From assembly GCA_016213845.1 (NCBI GenBank), contig JACQZN010000129.1, positions 13,268 to 77,267 on the forward strand: DNA of 64,000 nucleotides. The letters are read 5' to 3'. Positions within the stretch are counted from its first letter, which is position 1, and the number at the start of each line of letters is the position of its first letter. This DNA comes from Candidatus Wallbacteria bacterium (lineage in GTDB: Bacteria; Muiribacteriota; UBA6191; JACPRK01). Positions 3 through 19,914 of the stretch are shown here, piece after piece. The position numbers and the translations under genes were made by a program. The notes under the pieces are model-generated. The model had not been told where the DNA came from, ran no database searches, and worked only from the letters and a program-made list of their open reading frames with translations.

Positions 3-2462
3 AAGGCCGCCCTGGACCACTCGCGGGCCCACAAGCAACGCCTGGGAGAGGCGCTGGTGGAGATGGGAACGGTCAAGGAGCGCGACATCGCGATGGCGCT
101 CTCCAAGCAGCTCGCGCTCCCCTACGTCAATCTGGCCAAGACTCCCCCCGACGTCACGATCTTCGGGAAGGTCCCCAAGCGGCTCTGTCTCAAGAACCAG
201 CTGATCCCCTTCCGGCTCGAGGGCCGGATGCTCACCGTGGCAATCGTCGACCCGCTCAACGTGCTCGCGCTCGACGATATCCAGAACATCACCAGCTTCA
301 CGGTCCTGCCGGTCATCATCACCAAGTCGGACTACGACGCCGCCGTCAAGAACTTCCTGGGCGAAGAGGACGAGCTGCTCAGCATGCTCGACACCACTTC
401 CTCGGGCGGGCCCGCCGCATCCGACACCGGCTTCACCGAGGAAGCGACGCCGATCGTCAACCTGATCAACAAGATCATCGGGTTGGCCGTCCAGAAGGGC
501 GCCAGCGACATCCACTTCGACCCTGCCGAGACGGAGCTGCGCGTACGCTTCCGCATCGACGGAGTCCTCTCGGACGTGATGAAGCCGCCGATCGAGGCCG
601 CGCCCGCCATCTGCAGCCGCATCAAGGTGATGTGCAATCTCGATATCGCCGAGATCCGCCTGCCCCAGGACGGCAAGTTCCGGATGCGCGTCGACAACAA
701 GGTCATCGACTTCCGCGTCTCCATCTGCCCCATCGTCTGGGGAGAGAAGATCGTGATCCGGCTGCTGGACCAGAGCCGCTCTCAGGTGTCGATGGATGAA
801 TTGGGTCTCGAAGAGAAGGCGCTGACCGACCTGCGGGCCGGCATCCACGCCCCCAACGGCATCGTGCTCGTCACCGGCCCGACCGGCAGCGGCAAGAGCA
901 CCACCCTCTACAGCGCCTTGCACGAGCTGCTCGACCCGAAGGTCAACATCCACACCGCGGAGGACCCGGTGGAGTACTCGGTCCACGGGATCACGCAGGT
1001 GGCGATCAAACCCGAGATCGGCCTCACCTTCAGCGCCGTGCTGCGCTCCTTCCTGCGCCAGGACCCGGACATCATCCTGCTGGGCGAGATTCGCGACCTC
1101 GACAGCGCCTCGATCGCTTTCAAGGCCGCCATGACGGGCCACCTGGTGCTCTCGACGCTCCACACCAATGACGCGGTGGGCACCATCGACCGGCTGATCA
1201 CGATGGGGATTGACCGTTTCGTCATCGCCTCGGCCGTGCGGGTCATCCTGGCCCAGCGGCTGATCCGCAAGGTCTGCACGCAGTGCCGCGTCGCCGTGAT
1301 GACGCCACGGGAGGAGCTGCTCCAGTGGGGGCTTTCGCCCAGGCTCCTCGCGCTCGCGGGGCATGCCGCCGACGCGCCGGCGCTGCCGATGTTCGAGCCC
1401 AAGGGCTGCAACGAGTGCAACGAGGGTTACAAGGGCCGGATGGGCATCCACGAAGTGCTCTTCTTCACCGAATCGTTCCGGGAGAAGATCATCGCGGGCG
1501 CCGGGAACTTCGCCCTCTACCAGACAGCGCTCCAGGAGGGGATGCTGACGCTGCGGGATTCCGCGCTGGTCAAGGCACTGCGCGGTATCACGTCGCTCGA
1601 CGAGGTGAAGCGGCTGACGATGTCCGCCCAGCCGCAGCCCGCAGAGGCAGCACCGGCGGCGGCCGGGCCGCTCGAAGGTTTGCCCGGCGAAGCGGTGCCG
1701 GGGGAGCCGGCGGCCTCAGACGCCCCCATCGCCCAGGCCGCTACCTCTCCGCAGGTAAGCGAGCTCATCGATCACCTCGAGAGGCTCTCCCGGGTGACCA
1801 ACCTGGTCGACTTCCATCGTCCCCTGACACTCGCCGCGTCTCTGGCTGCCGACGTGCTCCGGGCGCTGGATCCGCGCTCGGGCGCGCAGGAGTCCGCCGC
1901 TGCCCGGGAGAAGGCCTCTCTGCTTGGCATCTACCTGGACAACCTCAAGTCCTTCTCGGACGCGACGCAGTCACGCGCGGAGAAGGTGGACGTCAACTCG
2001 CTGCTCAAGGAGAAGCTGCTGACCCGGCTCGCCGACCTTGCGGAGCGGGCTCGGCTGGTCTCCGGCAATGCGGTCGCCATCGACGCCATCACGCTGACGA
2101 CCTCGCTCGACCCTCAGCCCCTGGCCGGCGCCGCGGACGGCAAGCGGCTCCTGGAGTGCCTGGAGCAGGTCGTGGTAAACAGCTTCTGTTTCCTGCCGGC
2201 CGGGGGGAGGCTCGGGTTCACAACGAAGCGGATCGGCGAGGGCGGACGCGACTTCGCCGAGATCAGCATCCTCGACAGTGGCCCGGGCCTCAAGGAGGGC
2301 ATCGGAGACGTGACGGCGCCCGGAGTGAGCGGCTGCAAGAACGGGCTGGGGCTGGGGCTGGCGATCGTGCAGCGTTACGTCGGCCAGATGAAGGGTCGCG
2401 TCGAAATCAAGAGCAAGCCCGGCAAGGGATGCCTGGTCAAGTTCCGCATCCCGGTCGCCTGA
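3..2462 (+). CDS. pilB: PilB/GspE-type secretion/pilus assembly ATPase (5' truncated by window edge) with N-terminal MshEN motif and a C-terminal degenerate histidine-kinase core
   Basis: Frame is open from nt 3. MshEN-like RLGEALVEMGTVKERDIAMALSKQ at nt 39-110; Walker A GPTGSGKS; Asp box TAEDPVEY; Walker B LRQDPDIILLGEIRD; His box GHLVLSTLH; CTQC...CNEC zinc motif. After an Ala/Pro linker: DSGPG and GLGLGLAIV HATPase_c boxes. Confidence 0.9.
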   Translation, partial: KAALDHSRAHKQRLGEALVEMGTVKERDIAMALSKQLALPYVNLAKTPPDVTIFGKVPKRLCLKNQLIPFRLEGRMLTVAIVDPLNVLALDDIQNITSFTVLPVIITKSDYDAAVKNFLGEEDELLSMLDTTSSGGPAASDTGFTEEATPIVNLINKIIGLAVQKGASDIHFDPAETELRVRFRIDGVLSDVMKPPIEAAPAICSRIKVMCNLDIAEIRLPQDGKFRMRVDNKVIDFRVSICPIVWGEKIVIRLLDQSRSQVSMDELGLEEKALTDLRAGIHAPNGIVLVTGPTGSGKSTTLYSALHELLDPKVNIHTAEDPVEYSVHGITQVAIKPEIGLTFSAVLRSFLRQDPDIILLGEIRDLDSASIAFKAAMTGHLVLSTLHTNDAVGTIDRLITMGIDRFVIASAVRVILAQRLIRKVCTQCRVAVMTPREELLQWGLSPRLLALAGHAADAPALPMFEPKGCNECNEGYKGRMGIHEVLFFTESFREKIIAGAGNFALYQTALQEGMLTLRDSALVKALRGITSLDEVKRLTMSAQPQPAEAAPAAAGPLEGLPGEAVPGEPAASDAPIAQAATSPQVSELIDHLERLSRVTNLVDFHRPLTLAASLAADVLRALDPRSGAQESAAAREKASLLGIYLDNLKSFSDATQSRAEKVDVNSLLKEKLLTRLADLAERARLVSGNAVAIDAITLTTSLDPQPLAGAADGKRLLECLEQVVVNSFCFLPAGGRLGFTTKRIGEGGRDFAEISILDSGPGLKEGIGDVTAPGVSGCKNGLGLGLAIVQRYVGQMKGRVEIKSKPGKGCLVKFRIPVA

Positions 2463-2550: not shown

Positions 2551-3615
2551 CTACTGGGCCGATTCGGCTCGGCGACGAGCGGCCTCGTAGGCCTTCATCG
2601 CTTCCTGGAAGGCCTTCGTGGCCGCCTGGATGGCCGCGTTGTCCTTGGAGCCGACGGCCGCCTGCAGGTTCTTGTAGGCCGTCAGGTAGGCCTCTCGCTT
2701 GGCCTTGAGGTCATCGGCAGGGGCAGCCGTGGAGGATGGCTGGGTCGTTGCGACGGTCGCGGTCGGCTGCGTCGAGGTCCCACCGGTGGTGGAGGCCCGA
2801 GGATCCGGTGTCGTGGCGACTGCGGGGGCTGGCGCGGGCACGGAGGCCGCAGCGGTTTCCGAGGGGGCCGGCGTGTGGACGCCCGTGACGACCGTACCGG
2901 CTCCGACTGAGCCCTCGGTCGGGATGCGTTGCAGCAACCGCTCGAGCTCCGCGGGGGTGAGCGAGTAGGTGTCCGAGGCGCGGGCGCCGCCGCCGCTGCC
3001 GACGGGCGGGATGAGGTATCGCGGATTGAAGCCGTCGGAGAGCTGCTGGGCCTGGGTAAGCTGCTTCTCGGCGTTCTTCAGGTCCCTCCAGGCGAAGAAC
3101 TTCGTGATGAAGCTGAAGAACGGCGTGCTGTGGTAGCGCCATTGGAAGTACATCACGGCTTGCTGGGCCTGGCTAAGGGCCAGGTCGGCTCGGCTCTTGA
3201 GCTCCAGGTAGCTCGTGCGCGCGGCGGCGACGGAGTCGGGATCGTTGTTGCGAGAGAGGACTTCCTCCATGCAGGTCTTGGCCAGCTCCGTATTGCCCTT
3301 GGCCATGTAGCCCTTGGCGAGGCCCAGCCAGCCCTTGCTGACGGTGGGCGAGCTGTCCGGCGCAAGGTTGATGGCCTTCTGGAAATCCTGCAGAGCCGCG
3401 TCGATGTAGCCGGCGGCGAGCAGCGCGTTTCCCTCTGCGATGAGGAACTCGGCGCTGGCGTTGGGGGGCGGACCAGGCTGTGGCGGAAGGGCAGCCGAGC
3501 CCCCGAGCAGGCTGGCCCGGGTGGTGGCGGACGTCGACTGAGCGCTCTGGGCCTGCAGATTGACACTGCAAGCGAGAGCAGCTAGAATCGCCAGTCCGAT
3601 GACTCCGTACCTCAT
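2551..3615 (-). CDS. Exported TPR-containing protein with Thr/Ala/Pro-rich linker and C-terminal helical hairpin
   Basis: Signal peptide MRYGVIGLAILAALACSVNLQA; two TPR-like helices (LIAEGNALLAAGYIDAALQDFQKAINLAPD; GWLGLAKGYMAKGNTELAKTCMEEVL). Confidence 0.75.
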   Translation of the reverse strand: MRYGVIGLAILAALACSVNLQAQSAQSTSATTRASLLGGSAALPPQPGPPPNASAEFLIAEGNALLAAGYIDAALQDFQKAINLAPDSSPTVSKGWLGLAKGYMAKGNTELAKTCMEEVLSRNNDPDSVAAARTSYLELKSRADLALSQAQQAVMYFQWRYHSTPFFSFITKFFAWRDLKNAEKQLTQAQQLSDGFNPRYLIPPVGSGGGARASDTYSLTPAELERLLQRIPTEGSVGAGTVVTGVHTPAPSETAAASVPAPAPAVATTPDPRASTTGGTSTQPTATVATTQPSSTAAPADDLKAKREAYLTAYKNLQAAVGSKDNAAIQAATKAFQEAMKAYEAARRRAESAQ

Positions 3616-4677: not shown

Positions 4678-5067
4678 TCACCGGCGGGGACGCCGGGGGG
4701 CCAGCGGAGCGAGCGGCGCCGTGAGGTCGTCGGAGGTCTCGGCAACGCCGTCTGGCCCCGAGGAGTACACGAGCAGTCGAGGACCCGAGACAGCATACGG
4801 CTGTCCCCACGGGTCGACGAGGCTCTGCCCGCGGAGAGCCGGCACGGCCGCCAGGTCGGTCGGCAGCCGGTCCGGCCCGGGCGTGACCAGCCGTTCGGCC
4901 TCGATGGCGTCTCGAATCCCGTGCACCTCCGCCACCGCTATGCCGCTCAACCTGCGCTCCTTGACCGCACCGTACTCCATCGCCAGGAACCCGACGAGCA
5001 ACAGGAGCAAAGCCAGGGCCAGGAGCAGCTCCATGAGGGTGAAGCCGGCTCGTTCGCGCGTCGACAT
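4678..5067 (-). CDS. GspG-like pseudopilin / type IV pilin-family protein
   Basis: Class III signal G|FTLMELLL with E5, hydrophobic helix, DPWGQPY and YSSGPDG...SDD GspG C-terminal motifs. Confidence 0.85.
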   Translation of the reverse strand: MSTRERAGFTLMELLLALALLLLLVGFLAMEYGAVKERRLSGIAVAEVHGIRDAIEAERLVTPGPDRLPTDLAAVPALRGQSLVDPWGQPYAVSGPRLLVYSSGPDGVAETSDDLTAPLAPLAPRRPRR

Positions 5068-5078
5068 CCGATGGGAAT

Positions 5079-5465
5079 CTACGGCTTCAATCCCGCCCCG
5101 AACTCCAGCGCGCTCAGGACCCGAGTGATCTTCACCTCGTCGAATGGTTTGACGATGAAGTTCTCGGCTCCGAGCGACAGCGCGTCCATCACGTTCTTGC
5201 GCTGCCCCATCGCGCTGACGACGATGACCTTGATGCTGGAGTCGATGGTCTTGATCTGGCGGAGCGCCTCGAGCCCGTCCATGTTGGGCATCAGGATGTC
5301 CATCGTGACCAGGTCGGGACGGCTCTGGCGGCAGAAGTCGACCGCGAGCACGCCGTCAGCGGCCTCGCCGATGACGTCGAAGCCGTTCTTCGACAGGATC
5401 TGTCTCAGCGCCAGGCGCATGAAACCGCTGTCGTCGACTATCAGGACCCTCGGCTTGGCAGACAC
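5079..5465 (-). CDS. Single-domain CheY-like response regulator
   Basis: VLIVDD, TMDILMPNMDG (phospho-Asp), VSA and FIVKPF conserved. Confidence 0.9.
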   Translation of the reverse strand: MSAKPRVLIVDDSGFMRLALRQILSKNGFDVIGEAADGVLAVDFCRQSRPDLVTMDILMPNMDGLEALRQIKTIDSSIKVIVVSAMGQRKNVMDALSLGAENFIVKPFDEVKITRVLSALEFGAGLKP

Positions 5466-17916: not shown

Positions 17917-18141
17917 TGGGCCGGCTCAGCGCACGGCGAAGAGCAGACACCGGGGACTCATCGCGAGCTGCAGGCCCGCGCTCGACATCATGTCTGCGCC
18001 CCGTTCTTGAGCCTGAGCTACAGGGCGAAGTCAGGAGCCCGGTGGATCTCAACGCCGTGAGATTCGAAGTTGCCTCCGCCGGCGGGGCGCTTGAACTGGT
18101 TTCGGCGCAGTGATACTGTTGAATCCCTGACCGAAACACCG

Positions 18142-19914
18142 ATGCCCGATTCCGCGACCACGCAGCCCGCACCACCCGCCGTGGTGTCCGAGGCCGAGCT
18201 TTCCTCGCTCAAGGAGCGCCTCGACAAGATGGCGGTGCTCCTCGACGTCAGCAAGGTCATGAGCTCGGAGCGCAACCTGGACGCGCTCCTGTTCTACATC
18301 GCAGAGCAGGTCACCTTCGTGACCGACTCGGATCGCTGCAGCATCTTCCTGCTCGACCCACGCACCAACGAGCTCTGGTCCAAGGTCGCCCTCAAGGAGA
18401 AGAAGGAGATCCGGATTCCATCCAACGCCGGCCTCGTGGGCCACACGGTCACCACGGGCGAGATCGTCAACATCGAATCGGCCTACGACGATCCGCGCTT
18501 CAATCGGGACGTCGACATCGCCACCGGCTACCGCACCCGCAACCTTCTCTGCCTGCCCCTGCGCAACCTGTCGAGCAAGATTGTCGGCGCGCTCGAGGTC
18601 ATCAACAAGCACGAGGGCGCCTTCACGGAGCTCGACCGTGAGCTCCTGCAGATCTTCTGCTCACAGGCCGCCGTCGCCATCGAGAGCGCGCAGCTCTACC
18701 AGGAGAAGGAGCGCGCGCTGCTGGAGATCCGCCACAAGGTCCGCCAGCTCGACATCCTCTACAGCGTGGAAAAGGAGATCAACCTCTCCGACAACCTGGA
18801 CGAGTTCATGACGAGCGTGCTGTCGAAAGCCGCCGTCGCGCTGGCGGCCGAGGCCGGCTCGATCCTGATGCCGCTAGGGGCGGGCGGCAAGCTCTGTTTC
18901 CGCTACGTCGTCGACCAGCGGGCCGAGAAGCTGCGAGGCCTGGAGCTGGGTGCCGAAGAGGGTATTGCCACCGCGTGCTTCAAGAGCGCCCAGCCGATCA
19001 CCGTCAACGCGCCCGAGCACGAGGATCGGCATGCGGATCGCTTCGGGGAAGCGCTGGGCGTGAAGGTGCGGAACCTGGTGGCCGCCCCCTTGGTCCAGGG
19101 CGGTGAGGTCATCGGAGTGCTGGAGCTGGTCAATCGCAAGGGCGGAGACTTCACACACGAGGACGAGCGGATCGTCGACATGATCGCCACGCAGGTCTCC
19201 ACCGCCATCAACCGGCTGCGCATGCTCGAGGAAAAACAGCGGGCCACCCGGCTGGTCACGATCGGGCAAATGGCGGGAAGCATCATCCACGATTTCAAGA
19301 ACCCGATGGCCATCATCCGGGGACTGGGCGAGCTCCTGCAAAAGAGCCAGCTCCCCGAGGAAAAGCGGACGCGCTTCAGCAACATCATCATCGAGGAGGT
19401 CGATCGCTGCGTGAACATGACGCGCGACATCCTCGAGTACTGCAGCGGCGAAAAGAACTACCGCTTCCAGGCCGTGAACGTCAGCGACTTCGTCGAGGGC
19501 GTGTCGATCATCCTGGAGCACGACTTCGAGTCCGCCAACATCCGTTTCGAGCGAAAGCTCGACTACAAGGGCCCGCTGATGCTGGACATCGACAAGATGA
19601 AGCGGGTCGTCTTCAACATCTCCAACAACGCCCGCAGCGTGATGAGCGCCGGCGGCGTCTTCGCCTTCGAGTGCCGCCAGGACGGTGGGGAGATCGAGCT
19701 CCGGCTCTCGGATTCGGGCCCTGGAATCCCCCAGGAGATCCGGGCGACGGTCTTCCAGCCCTTCGTCACCATGGGAAAGAAGCACGGTACCGGACTGGGC
19801 CTGGCCATCGTGAAGGAAATCGTGGAGGCCCACAGCGGCCGGATCGAGCTGCTGGACGTCCCAGGCCGGGGCGCCGTCTTCAGCATCCGCATGCCGGTTC
19901 CGCCCCAGACTTGA
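18142..19914 (+). CDS. Cytoplasmic GAF-GAF sensor histidine kinase
   Basis: Two GAF domains; H-box HDFKNP, N-box NISNNA, DSGPG, F-box VFQPF, GTGLGL; no TM segments. Confidence 0.9.
   Translation: MPDSATTQPAPPAVVSEAELSSLKERLDKMAVLLDVSKVMSSERNLDALLFYIAEQVTFVTDSDRCSIFLLDPRTNELWSKVALKEKKEIRIPSNAGLVGHTVTTGEIVNIESAYDDPRFNRDVDIATGYRTRNLLCLPLRNLSSKIVGALEVINKHEGAFTELDRELLQIFCSQAAVAIESAQLYQEKERALLEIRHKVRQLDILYSVEKEINLSDNLDEFMTSVLSKAAVALAAEAGSILMPLGAGGKLCFRYVVDQRAEKLRGLELGAEEGIATACFKSAQPITVNAPEHEDRHADRFGEALGVKVRNLVAAPLVQGGEVIGVLELVNRKGGDFTHEDERIVDMIATQVSTAINRLRMLEEKQRATRLVTIGQMAGSIIHDFKNPMAIIRGLGELLQKSQLPEEKRTRFSNIIIEEVDRCVNMTRDILEYCSGEKNYRFQAVNVSDFVEGVSIILEHDFESANIRFERKLDYKGPLMLDIDKMKRVVFNISNNARSVMSAGGVFAFECRQDGGEIELRLSDSGPGIPQEIRATVFQPFVTMGKKHGTGLGLAIVKEIVEAHSGRIELLDVPGRGAVFSIRMPVPPQT

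Follow-up and report, generated by a model that had tools for sequence, protein, structure and literature searches.

A long PilB-type ATPase paralogue with a histidine-kinase-like C-terminal tail that lacks the acceptor histidine

The stretch of 64,000 nucleotides analyzed here, called the window throughout (G000:C123:13268-77267 in genome coordinates), begins inside a gene for a PilB-type ATPase whose C-terminal part, referred to below as the tail, resembles the core of a histidine kinase. Positions 3 to 2462 of the window form a single open frame without a stop, cut by the 5' window edge. The full gene extends over C123:12628-15729 and its product has 1033 aa. Its start is most likely the ATG at C123:12628, 639 nt 5' of the window, judged by the start common to the orthologous sequences. 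An earlier reading of this DNA, made from its letters and hereafter called the sequence-only reading, proposed that one protein joins a MshEN-bearing motor of the PilB type to a C-terminal module consisting of a region like the dimerization and histidine phosphotransfer (DHp) domain and a GHKL domain. The uninterrupted frame, the Pfam matches and the fold prediction agree with this proposal. All the sequence strings that it quoted are present, with verified coordinates, and the end that it gave for the PilB ATPase, near nt 1620, coincides with that found for the T2SSE domain (about nt 1613-1620). The architecture was right but the extent of the protein was not, since the N-terminus is longer and carries extra motif pairs for cyclic di-GMP (c-di-GMP) upstream of the window.

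Layout of the protein and origin of its tail

The features of the gene and of its close neighbors are collected in Table 1. In the aa numbering of the open frame of the window, Pfam places MshEN at 38-124 (66.6 bits), T2SSE at 146-537 (441.6 bits) and HATPase_c at 712-818 (41.7 bits, for a gathering cut-off of 26.4 bits). The motor core contains a Walker A box (GPTGSGKST, positions 876-902), an Asp box, a Walker B box and a His box, as well as a Cys4 zinc motif at positions 1275-1418 (C639, C642, C683 and C686), and all of these are invariant among the orthologues.

Table 1. Features of the long PilB gene and of neighboring genes (window positions unless a contig is named)
Feature	Position	Strand	Basis or remark
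Long PilB paralogue with pseudokinase tail; 3' 819 codons and stop (3' four-fifths of the gene)	3..2462	+	Full-length orthologues, common start
End of second tandem MshEN_N c-di-GMP motif pair (aa 198-250, RLGDILVEQK... / RLGEALVEMG...Q, 5-residue spacer)	3..110	+	Motif scan
MshEN domain (Pfam PF05157)	114..374	+	66.6 bits
T2SSE ATPase core, PilB/GspE type	438..1613	+	Pfam, NCBIfam, invariant motifs
Pro/Ala-rich linker, about 44 aa	1620..1751	+	dN/dS
DHp-like helical hairpin	1752..1976	+	Sequence and profile alignment, AlphaFold2, Foldseek
H-box remnant LVDFHRPLT	1803-1829	+	Coordinates verified; Val 1806-1808 at the phospho-acceptor position
HATPase_c (CA/GHKL) domain	2136..2456	+	Pfam; N-box Asn 2178-2180, DSGPG 2274-2288, GLGLGL 2343-2360, GKG near the C-terminus
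Convergent TPR protein with signal-peptide/lipobox-like N-terminus and long Pro/Thr/Ala-rich C-terminus	2551..3615	-	PilW (type IV pilus biogenesis/stability protein) is the best NCBIfam match, weak at 25 bits vs a cut-off of 154
Small prepilin-type (N_methyl) protein	4678..5067	-	Syntenic with the long PilB gene only within f1
CheY-like single-domain response regulator, candidate partner	5079..5465	-	Syntenic only within f1; 2.6 kb downstream
Small HTH_17 (excisionase/MerR-like) gene, divergent from the long PilB gene	L009:12136-12450, 178-492 nt upstream of the gene start	-	Domain match

We scanned the N-terminal region for MshEN_N pairs, defined as two 24-residue motifs of the type RLGxx(L/V/I)(L/V/I)xxG... 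lying 5 residues apart, with the relaxed motif taken from PMC5013675. Two complete pairs, each with the 5-residue spacer, precede the MshEN domain at aa 131-183 and 198-250, and a degenerate third one lies at aa 21-73. Compared with the relaxed motif, the two halves of one pair (aa 198-221 and 227-250) deviate at 1 and 0 positions, and those of the other (aa 131-154 and 160-183) at 1 and 2. Both the pair at aa 131-183 and the degenerate one are encoded 5' of the window (L009:12628-13267, protein aa 1-214). The NCBIfam model NF053729 (c-di-GMP_motif) scored 29.2 bits, below its cut-off of 38 bits. The multi-pair layout is retained in the full-length relatives P0004, P0005, P0043 and P0073, and the members from the family designated f10 possess two full MshEN Pfam domains instead of the extra pairs. 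The N-terminal pairs and the MshEN domain most likely bind c-di-GMP, as suggested by these motifs. With several pairs in its sequence, each subunit of the window protein may accommodate at least two molecules of c-di-GMP.

The C-terminal 279 aa were compared alone with known proteins by phmmer, and matched the catalytic and ATP-binding (CA) domain of NtrB (3.8e-8), DivL over both DHp and CA (6.3e-8), and also ZraS. A family profile of 15 sequences matched ZraS with E=1.8e-27 over profile positions 29-245, HK853 over positions 9-244, and the CA domain of NtrB at 2.8e-22. Since the matches to ZraS and HK853 span the DHp domain, the helical region of the tail is homologous in sequence to a real DHp. 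An AlphaFold2 model of the tail computed from the 15-sequence alignment (pLDDT confidence score 85, predicted TM-score 0.84) replaced a 3-sequence model that was weak in the DHp (pLDDT 57-75), all structure models being monomers. It shows helices 2-41, kinked at RPL, and 52-72 as a two-helix hairpin followed by an alpha/beta CA domain. Foldseek searches with this model returned only complete histidine kinase cores, namely HK853, ZraS, YycG/WalK, CckA, DivL and RetS, with a probability of 1.00 and TM-scores of 0.60-0.68, so that the DHp/GHKL fold, which the sequence-only reading had singled out for checking, is borne out by the prediction. As a separate observation, the CA domain of CckA with c-di-GMP (PDB 5IDM) superposes on the model with an rmsd of 2.5-2.7 A and a TM-score of 0.73 on the target.

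HATPase_c scores ranged from 41.7 to 66 bits across the fusion members scanned, and from 19 to 29 bits for the tails of family f5. No Pfam match to HisKA or a related domain was obtained in the tail, even at E<=10. The control for this search was the ordinary kinase that had been noted at position 18142 as keeping HDFKNP and VFQPF: its gene (18070-19914) indeed encodes a GAF-GAF-HisKA-HATPase_c protein with IHDFKNP and VFQPF, and its HisKA scored 43 bits. HATPase_c_2 (PF13581), the family of the anti-sigma GHKL Ser kinases, gave no match in the tail at E<=10 while several ordinary kinases do match it. Taken together, the sequence comparisons argue that the tail descends from the core of a class I histidine kinase of the NtrB/ZraS type.

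We then looked at the residue that stands at the phospho-acceptor position. DivL YELRTPLT aligns to VDFHRPLT of the tail, and in the family profile the Val of the tail shares its column with the His of ZraS HEIRNPL. The Val that had been proposed at this position is hence found there in two independent alignments. The residue in this column is V, I or A in f1, the family of the window lineage, and R or Q in f5; the f10 members have K, S, S, S, A, Q, Q and H, meaning that a His is found in one out of eight. Lacking an acceptor, the tail should be unable to carry out histidine-to-aspartate phosphotransfer and is best read as a pseudokinase. This was one of the options offered by the sequence-only reading, and it fits both the loss of the acceptor His and the absence of a HisKA match. 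Failing on these two counts, the tail should not be filed as a kinase.

The nucleotide-binding boxes are better preserved. Three elements never vary in the 15-sequence alignment, namely the Asn of the N-box, the Asp of G1 and the LGLGL of the G2 box. In the product of the window gene they correspond to N940, D972-G976 and G995-L1000, which are invariant in f1 and retained in f3 and f10, as are the G1 glycines. These glycines are lost in f5, which has QDNSSN and similar sequences in their place. The F-box is degenerate in the window lineage (VTAPGV), lost in f1, and present in f10 (LFTPF), in P0043 (APFHS) and in f3 (QPFHT). The earlier statement that the F-box is missing holds for the window lineage but does not extend to its sister lineages.

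Occurrence, selection and genomic neighborhood

In order to follow the occurrence of the fusion in the candidate phylum, we compared the full-length protein with 87 species genomes and scored the best nine candidates per genome, so that the counts are lower bounds. A long PilB was recorded when its frame aligned into the tail or when its tail was homologous by hhalign; the frame lengths of about 980-1080 aa were taken stop-to-stop and are not verified gene models. All five genomes of f1 and the single genome of f3 contain a long PilB, as do 8/10 genomes of f5 and 34 of the 51 of f10, and none was recorded in the 20 genomes of the other six families. The fusion is present in at least 48 of the 87 genomes, in four families. 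The f5 tails are beyond the reach of BLAST, and were connected to the others by hhalign (99.1%, E=1.3e-18).

The same uninterrupted architecture was found in independent assemblies (P0004, P0005, L012, L015, P0041-43 and P0073). Other metagenome-assembled genomes (MAGs) labeled Candidatus Wallbacteria carry the fusion with tails that are 95% and 84% identical to that of the window, and it was also found in two more MAGs from NCBI, in fragments of metagenomes, and in the divergent full-length proteins P0043, from an unclassified metagenome contig, and P0073. One of the genomes (L014/G066, GCA_021772705.1) is labeled Candidatus Cloacimonadota, yet it groups in the family of the window genome and shares the synteny of the locus, and the label may be wrong.

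The outcome depends strongly on the search. Word-indexed homology searches that used the P0003, P0043 and P0073 tails returned two close relatives and otherwise ordinary kinases, and badly under-reported the family. When the f1 tail profile was run against the phylum with a limit of E<=1e-25, f1 alone was returned, and the wider spread was seen by the full-length search and by frame lengths. An exhaustive profile search gave 113,706 matches at E<=0.001, which are mostly ordinary kinases, and since the best 150 of the 113,706 were inspected, the fusion may also occur outside the candidate phylum.

The ratio of nonsynonymous to synonymous substitution rates (dN/dS) was computed against the 95%-identical MAG, with dS about 0.2. 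It amounts to 0.037 for the T2SSE motor core, 0.96 for the linker, 0.16 for the DHp-like helices and 0.048 for the CA domain, a pattern indicating that the tail is translated and constrained. The linker evolves neutrally yet it holds the reading frame, the same comparison showing an in-frame indel of 2 codons, and is a free tether. An aromatic motif, G(A/T)(Y/W)KL, directly follows the PilB C-terminal domain in P0004, P0005, P0042, P0043 and all f5 members, where a motif of this type belongs to a more extended conserved stretch (LIDEIxIRSGxWKL...PFF). The region that bears it aligns to about positions 1640-1700 of the window, and the genus of the window has Pro/Ala-rich sequence there.

Concerning the relation of this gene to pilus assembly, the best NCBIfam model is the PilB equivalog TIGR02538, with 613.1 bits for a cut-off of 675.65. 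Every survey genome also contains a canonical PilB of about 580 aa. In the window genome, the canonical PilB is 49% identical to the fusion protein and adjoins PilT and PilC on contig C94. This genome possesses about a dozen PilB/GspE-like genes and many PilT-like ATPases, and only some of them have an adjacent PilC; PilC genes adjoin several other PilB paralogues. No PilC or PilT was found among the neighbors within about 12 kb of the fusion gene, PilMNOPQ are not adjacent either, and the T2SSF matches closest to it belong to Tad-type genes some 34 kb downstream. The fusion gene counts as an accessory paralogue of PilB, and its product belongs to the T2SSE/PilB superfamily without being a PilB equivalog.

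The neighborhood was also compared between families. Genes for TPR proteins recur: those of f1 and f3 lie downstream in convergent orientation, and in f10 they immediately precede the fusion gene on its own strand. Orthologues of the divergent HTH_17 gene, 46-70% identical, are found in f1, f3 and on the P0043 contig; f5 has a MerR_1 gene at this place and f10 has none. The HTH_17 protein could be a transcriptional regulator of the fusion gene or a partner of its product. Gene order names no partner. The response regulators at 5079 and 20327, which the sequence-only reading named for phosphotransfer assays, are candidate partners at most. Further upstream, about 7 kb from the gene, a cyclic-nucleotide-binding domain is fused to a ParA/MinD-type (CbiA/AAA_31) ATPase (L009:4158-5414, + strand). 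Also upstream is a protein with a DnaB-like helicase C-terminal domain and an N-terminal zinc ribbon (UPF0547; L009:9253-11016, + strand), followed by a zinc-dependent phospholipase C-like protein (L009:11056-11949, + strand) that adjoins the HTH_17 gene in L010 too. In the f10 genome G033 (L040:5996-8999), FlgK-like (flagellar hook-associated) and flagellin-N (FlgL/flagellin) genes follow the fusion gene, which lies there at the edge of a flagellar cluster.

Readings of the function of the tail

We favor the view, to which we give a probability of about 0.55, that the tail is a built-in regulatory or docking pseudokinase module on an accessory hexameric ATPase of the PilB type. Regulatory modules would sit at both ends of the motor, a c-di-GMP-type one at the N-terminus and a kinase-derived one at the C-terminus, the latter on a disordered linker of ~44 residues. 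The tail would act via protein contacts and not as a phosphodonor. The hairpins are expected to pair into four-helix bundles, as they do in class I kinases, and six tails would then make three dimers in each hexamer. A partner, which may be a receiver as in the DivL paradigm or another kinase as in the RetS paradigm, would dock onto the resulting DHp/CA surface, or this surface would couple neighboring motor subunits, and the CA pocket could serve as a sensor of ATP or ADP. The activity of the motor, its placement or its signaling output might in this manner be tuned jointly with c-di-GMP.

Several points weigh against this view. Dimerization, nucleotide binding, the identity of the partner and the direction in which information flows are what we infer, and, the models being those of monomers, the pairing into bundles is proposed by likeness to class I kinases. 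The one receiver gene close by keeps its place near the fusion gene within f1 alone, is absent from the f5 and f10 flanks examined, and was not identified in f3. The loss of the G1 glycines in f5 suggests that the function common to the phylum may be independent of nucleotide. Finally, DxGxG is under strong constraint in f1 and f10, which could instead mean that real catalysis has been retained there.

A broader proposal makes the protein a motor that integrates signals. The pseudokinase would read or sequester phosphorylated receivers or pair with sensor kinases, and the MshEN modules, and perhaps the CA domain as in CckA, would read c-di-GMP. We regard it as possible but less likely than not. 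If it is true, two-component and second-messenger signaling would converge on one hexamer, and the state of the motor could be reported to the network.

The last point raised against the docking module leads to an unlikely but substantial alternative, in which the tail is still an enzyme, either a GHKL ATPase or a kinase with a non-His acceptor, modifying a Ser, Thr or Tyr of the motor itself, of its linker or of a partner protein. GHKL kinases of this sort include SpoIIAB/RsbW, PDK/BCK, and the kinase-like domains of plant phytochromes or ethylene receptors. The invariance of the N-box Asn, DxGxG and GLGLGL in f1, f3 and f10, the canonical F-box of f10, and a dN/dS for the CA domain as low as that of the motor core all argue for an enzyme, as does the G(A/T)(Y/W)KL motif in the linker of most members. 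However, this motif is lost in the genus of the window itself and no conserved Ser, Thr or Tyr is found at or near the acceptor column. In addition, f5 has no G1 glycines, the window lineage has a degenerate F-box and an ATP lid that is degenerate in part, and the tail has no HATPase_c_2 match.

Another reading, which we also consider rather improbable, is reverse signaling as with DivL: the His-less DHp would dock the phosphorylated form of the receiver encoded at 5079-5465, thereby gating the motor or sequestering the receiver. In Caulobacter, DivL (PDB 4Q20) has a His-less DHp and CA core that senses a phosphorylated single-domain receiver and does not serve as a phosphodonor (PMC4211667). 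DivL is among the best matches of the tail over DHp and CA, in sequence as well as in structure, and both are DHp-CA cores with a non-His residue at the acceptor position. A single-domain receiver is indeed encoded close by and is conserved in f1 alongside the pilin-like gene, and receivers are known to act on PilB in other bacteria. Nevertheless, the synteny of the receiver stops at f1. Moreover, DivL possesses all the boxes, an intact H-box with a conserved Tyr at the acceptor position, and PAS inputs (PMC4211667), while the acceptor residue varies among V, I, A, K, S, Q and R in the tails. Pfam detects no PAS domain in the fusion protein, whose tail follows the T2SSE ATPase on a disordered linker.

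The sequence-only reading had further considered a phosphatase. A tail dedicated to dephosphorylating a phosphorylated receiver, its kinase activity being lost, would agree with the DHp fold and with the acidic residue beside the acceptor (D817), which is retained in f1. Some kinases, such as EnvZ, keep phosphatase activity without the His. The E/D-x-x-T/N phosphatase motif of HisKA is however not retained, the f1 sequence being V-D-F-H-R with an Arg at +4. The +1 residue is non-acidic in f10, and the RPL segment is absent from f3 and P0043. This option is disfavored and appears very unlikely.

Still less credible is the third option of that reading, a kinase using a shifted acceptor, namely the His of LVDFH that stands three residues after the canonical position. 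The window protein has this His, as had been seen, and the 95%-identical MAG has it too, but it is not conserved, the close orthologues having H, S, A or T there. The tails of P0004 and P0041 are devoid of His, and His stays below 50% in every tail column among 17 representatives of four families. The comparative data contradict a shifted-His kinase and refute this option. Lastly, an artefact or a decaying remnant (an assembly chimera, genes joined by a frameshift, or a functionless relic of a neighboring kinase gene) could be suspected from a gene known from MAGs with low-complexity, GC-rich DNA at the junction, but it is excluded for practical purposes by dozens of independent assemblies with the same uninterrupted fusion and by the dN/dS pattern, with in-frame linker indels, strong purifying selection on the tail and a confident kinase-core fold also speaking against it.

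Relation to known systems and significance

The N-terminal three-quarters of the fusion protein are like PilB, MshE and GspE (T2SSE PF00437, MshEN PF05157, TIGR02538), with RLGxxLLxxG...Q motifs, the ATPase boxes and the Cys4 site. It differs from them in scoring below the PilB equivalog cut-off, in having no adjacent platform genes, and in its C-terminal module of about 280 aa. PilF of Thermus thermophilus, a PilB homologue, contains several N-terminal GSPII/MshEN modules and is not known to have a kinase-like C-terminal module. It shares with the fusion protein tandem modules of the c-di-GMP type placed at the N-terminus of a pilus extension ATPase. In Myxococcus xanthus, the nucleotide state of PilB serves as a regulatory signal that does not depend on pilus assembly (PMC5544727). 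The output of Myxococcus PilB passes via separate proteins, whereas the fusion carries a signaling-type module on the motor itself.

On the kinase side, ZraS, NtrB and AtoS are the closest true kinases by sequence, and the short ATP lid of the tail is as in NtrB. Unlike the tail, they have a HE(I/L)RNPL H-box with its His, an F-box and a HisKA detectable by Pfam, none of which is found in the window lineage. RetS from Pseudomonas resembles the tail in structure (Foldseek probability 1.00), and its DHp acts without its own His, by heterodimerizing with real kinases; it is however a membrane hybrid kinase with receiver domains.

The sequence-only reading did not recognize this architecture as described. 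In the full-text literature that we searched, which included a 2024 review of PilB cofactors and the MshEN paper (PMC5013675), no PilB/GspE ATPase was described as joined to a kinase-like module. That part of the claim stands, although the fusion is not rare, being common in the phylum (at least 48/87 genomes). It is an uncharacterized combination of known kinds, common in one candidate phylum.

The pilus extension motors described so far are regulated by separate cofactors (PilZ/FimX, and receivers such as PilG/PilH or PATAN proteins) and by c-di-GMP at the N-terminus. A kinase-derived C-terminal module under selection in four families would represent a new regulatory wiring of the PilB ATPase class. 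The setting is also unusual for a bacterial pseudokinase, which is placed here behind an enzyme and not behind sensor domains. The erosion seen between lineages provides natural variants, with a full CA domain in f10, no F-box in f1 and no G1 glycines in f5. The protein offers a compact, expressible test case for what His-less kinase cores do and for how the state of a PilB hexamer couples to signaling.

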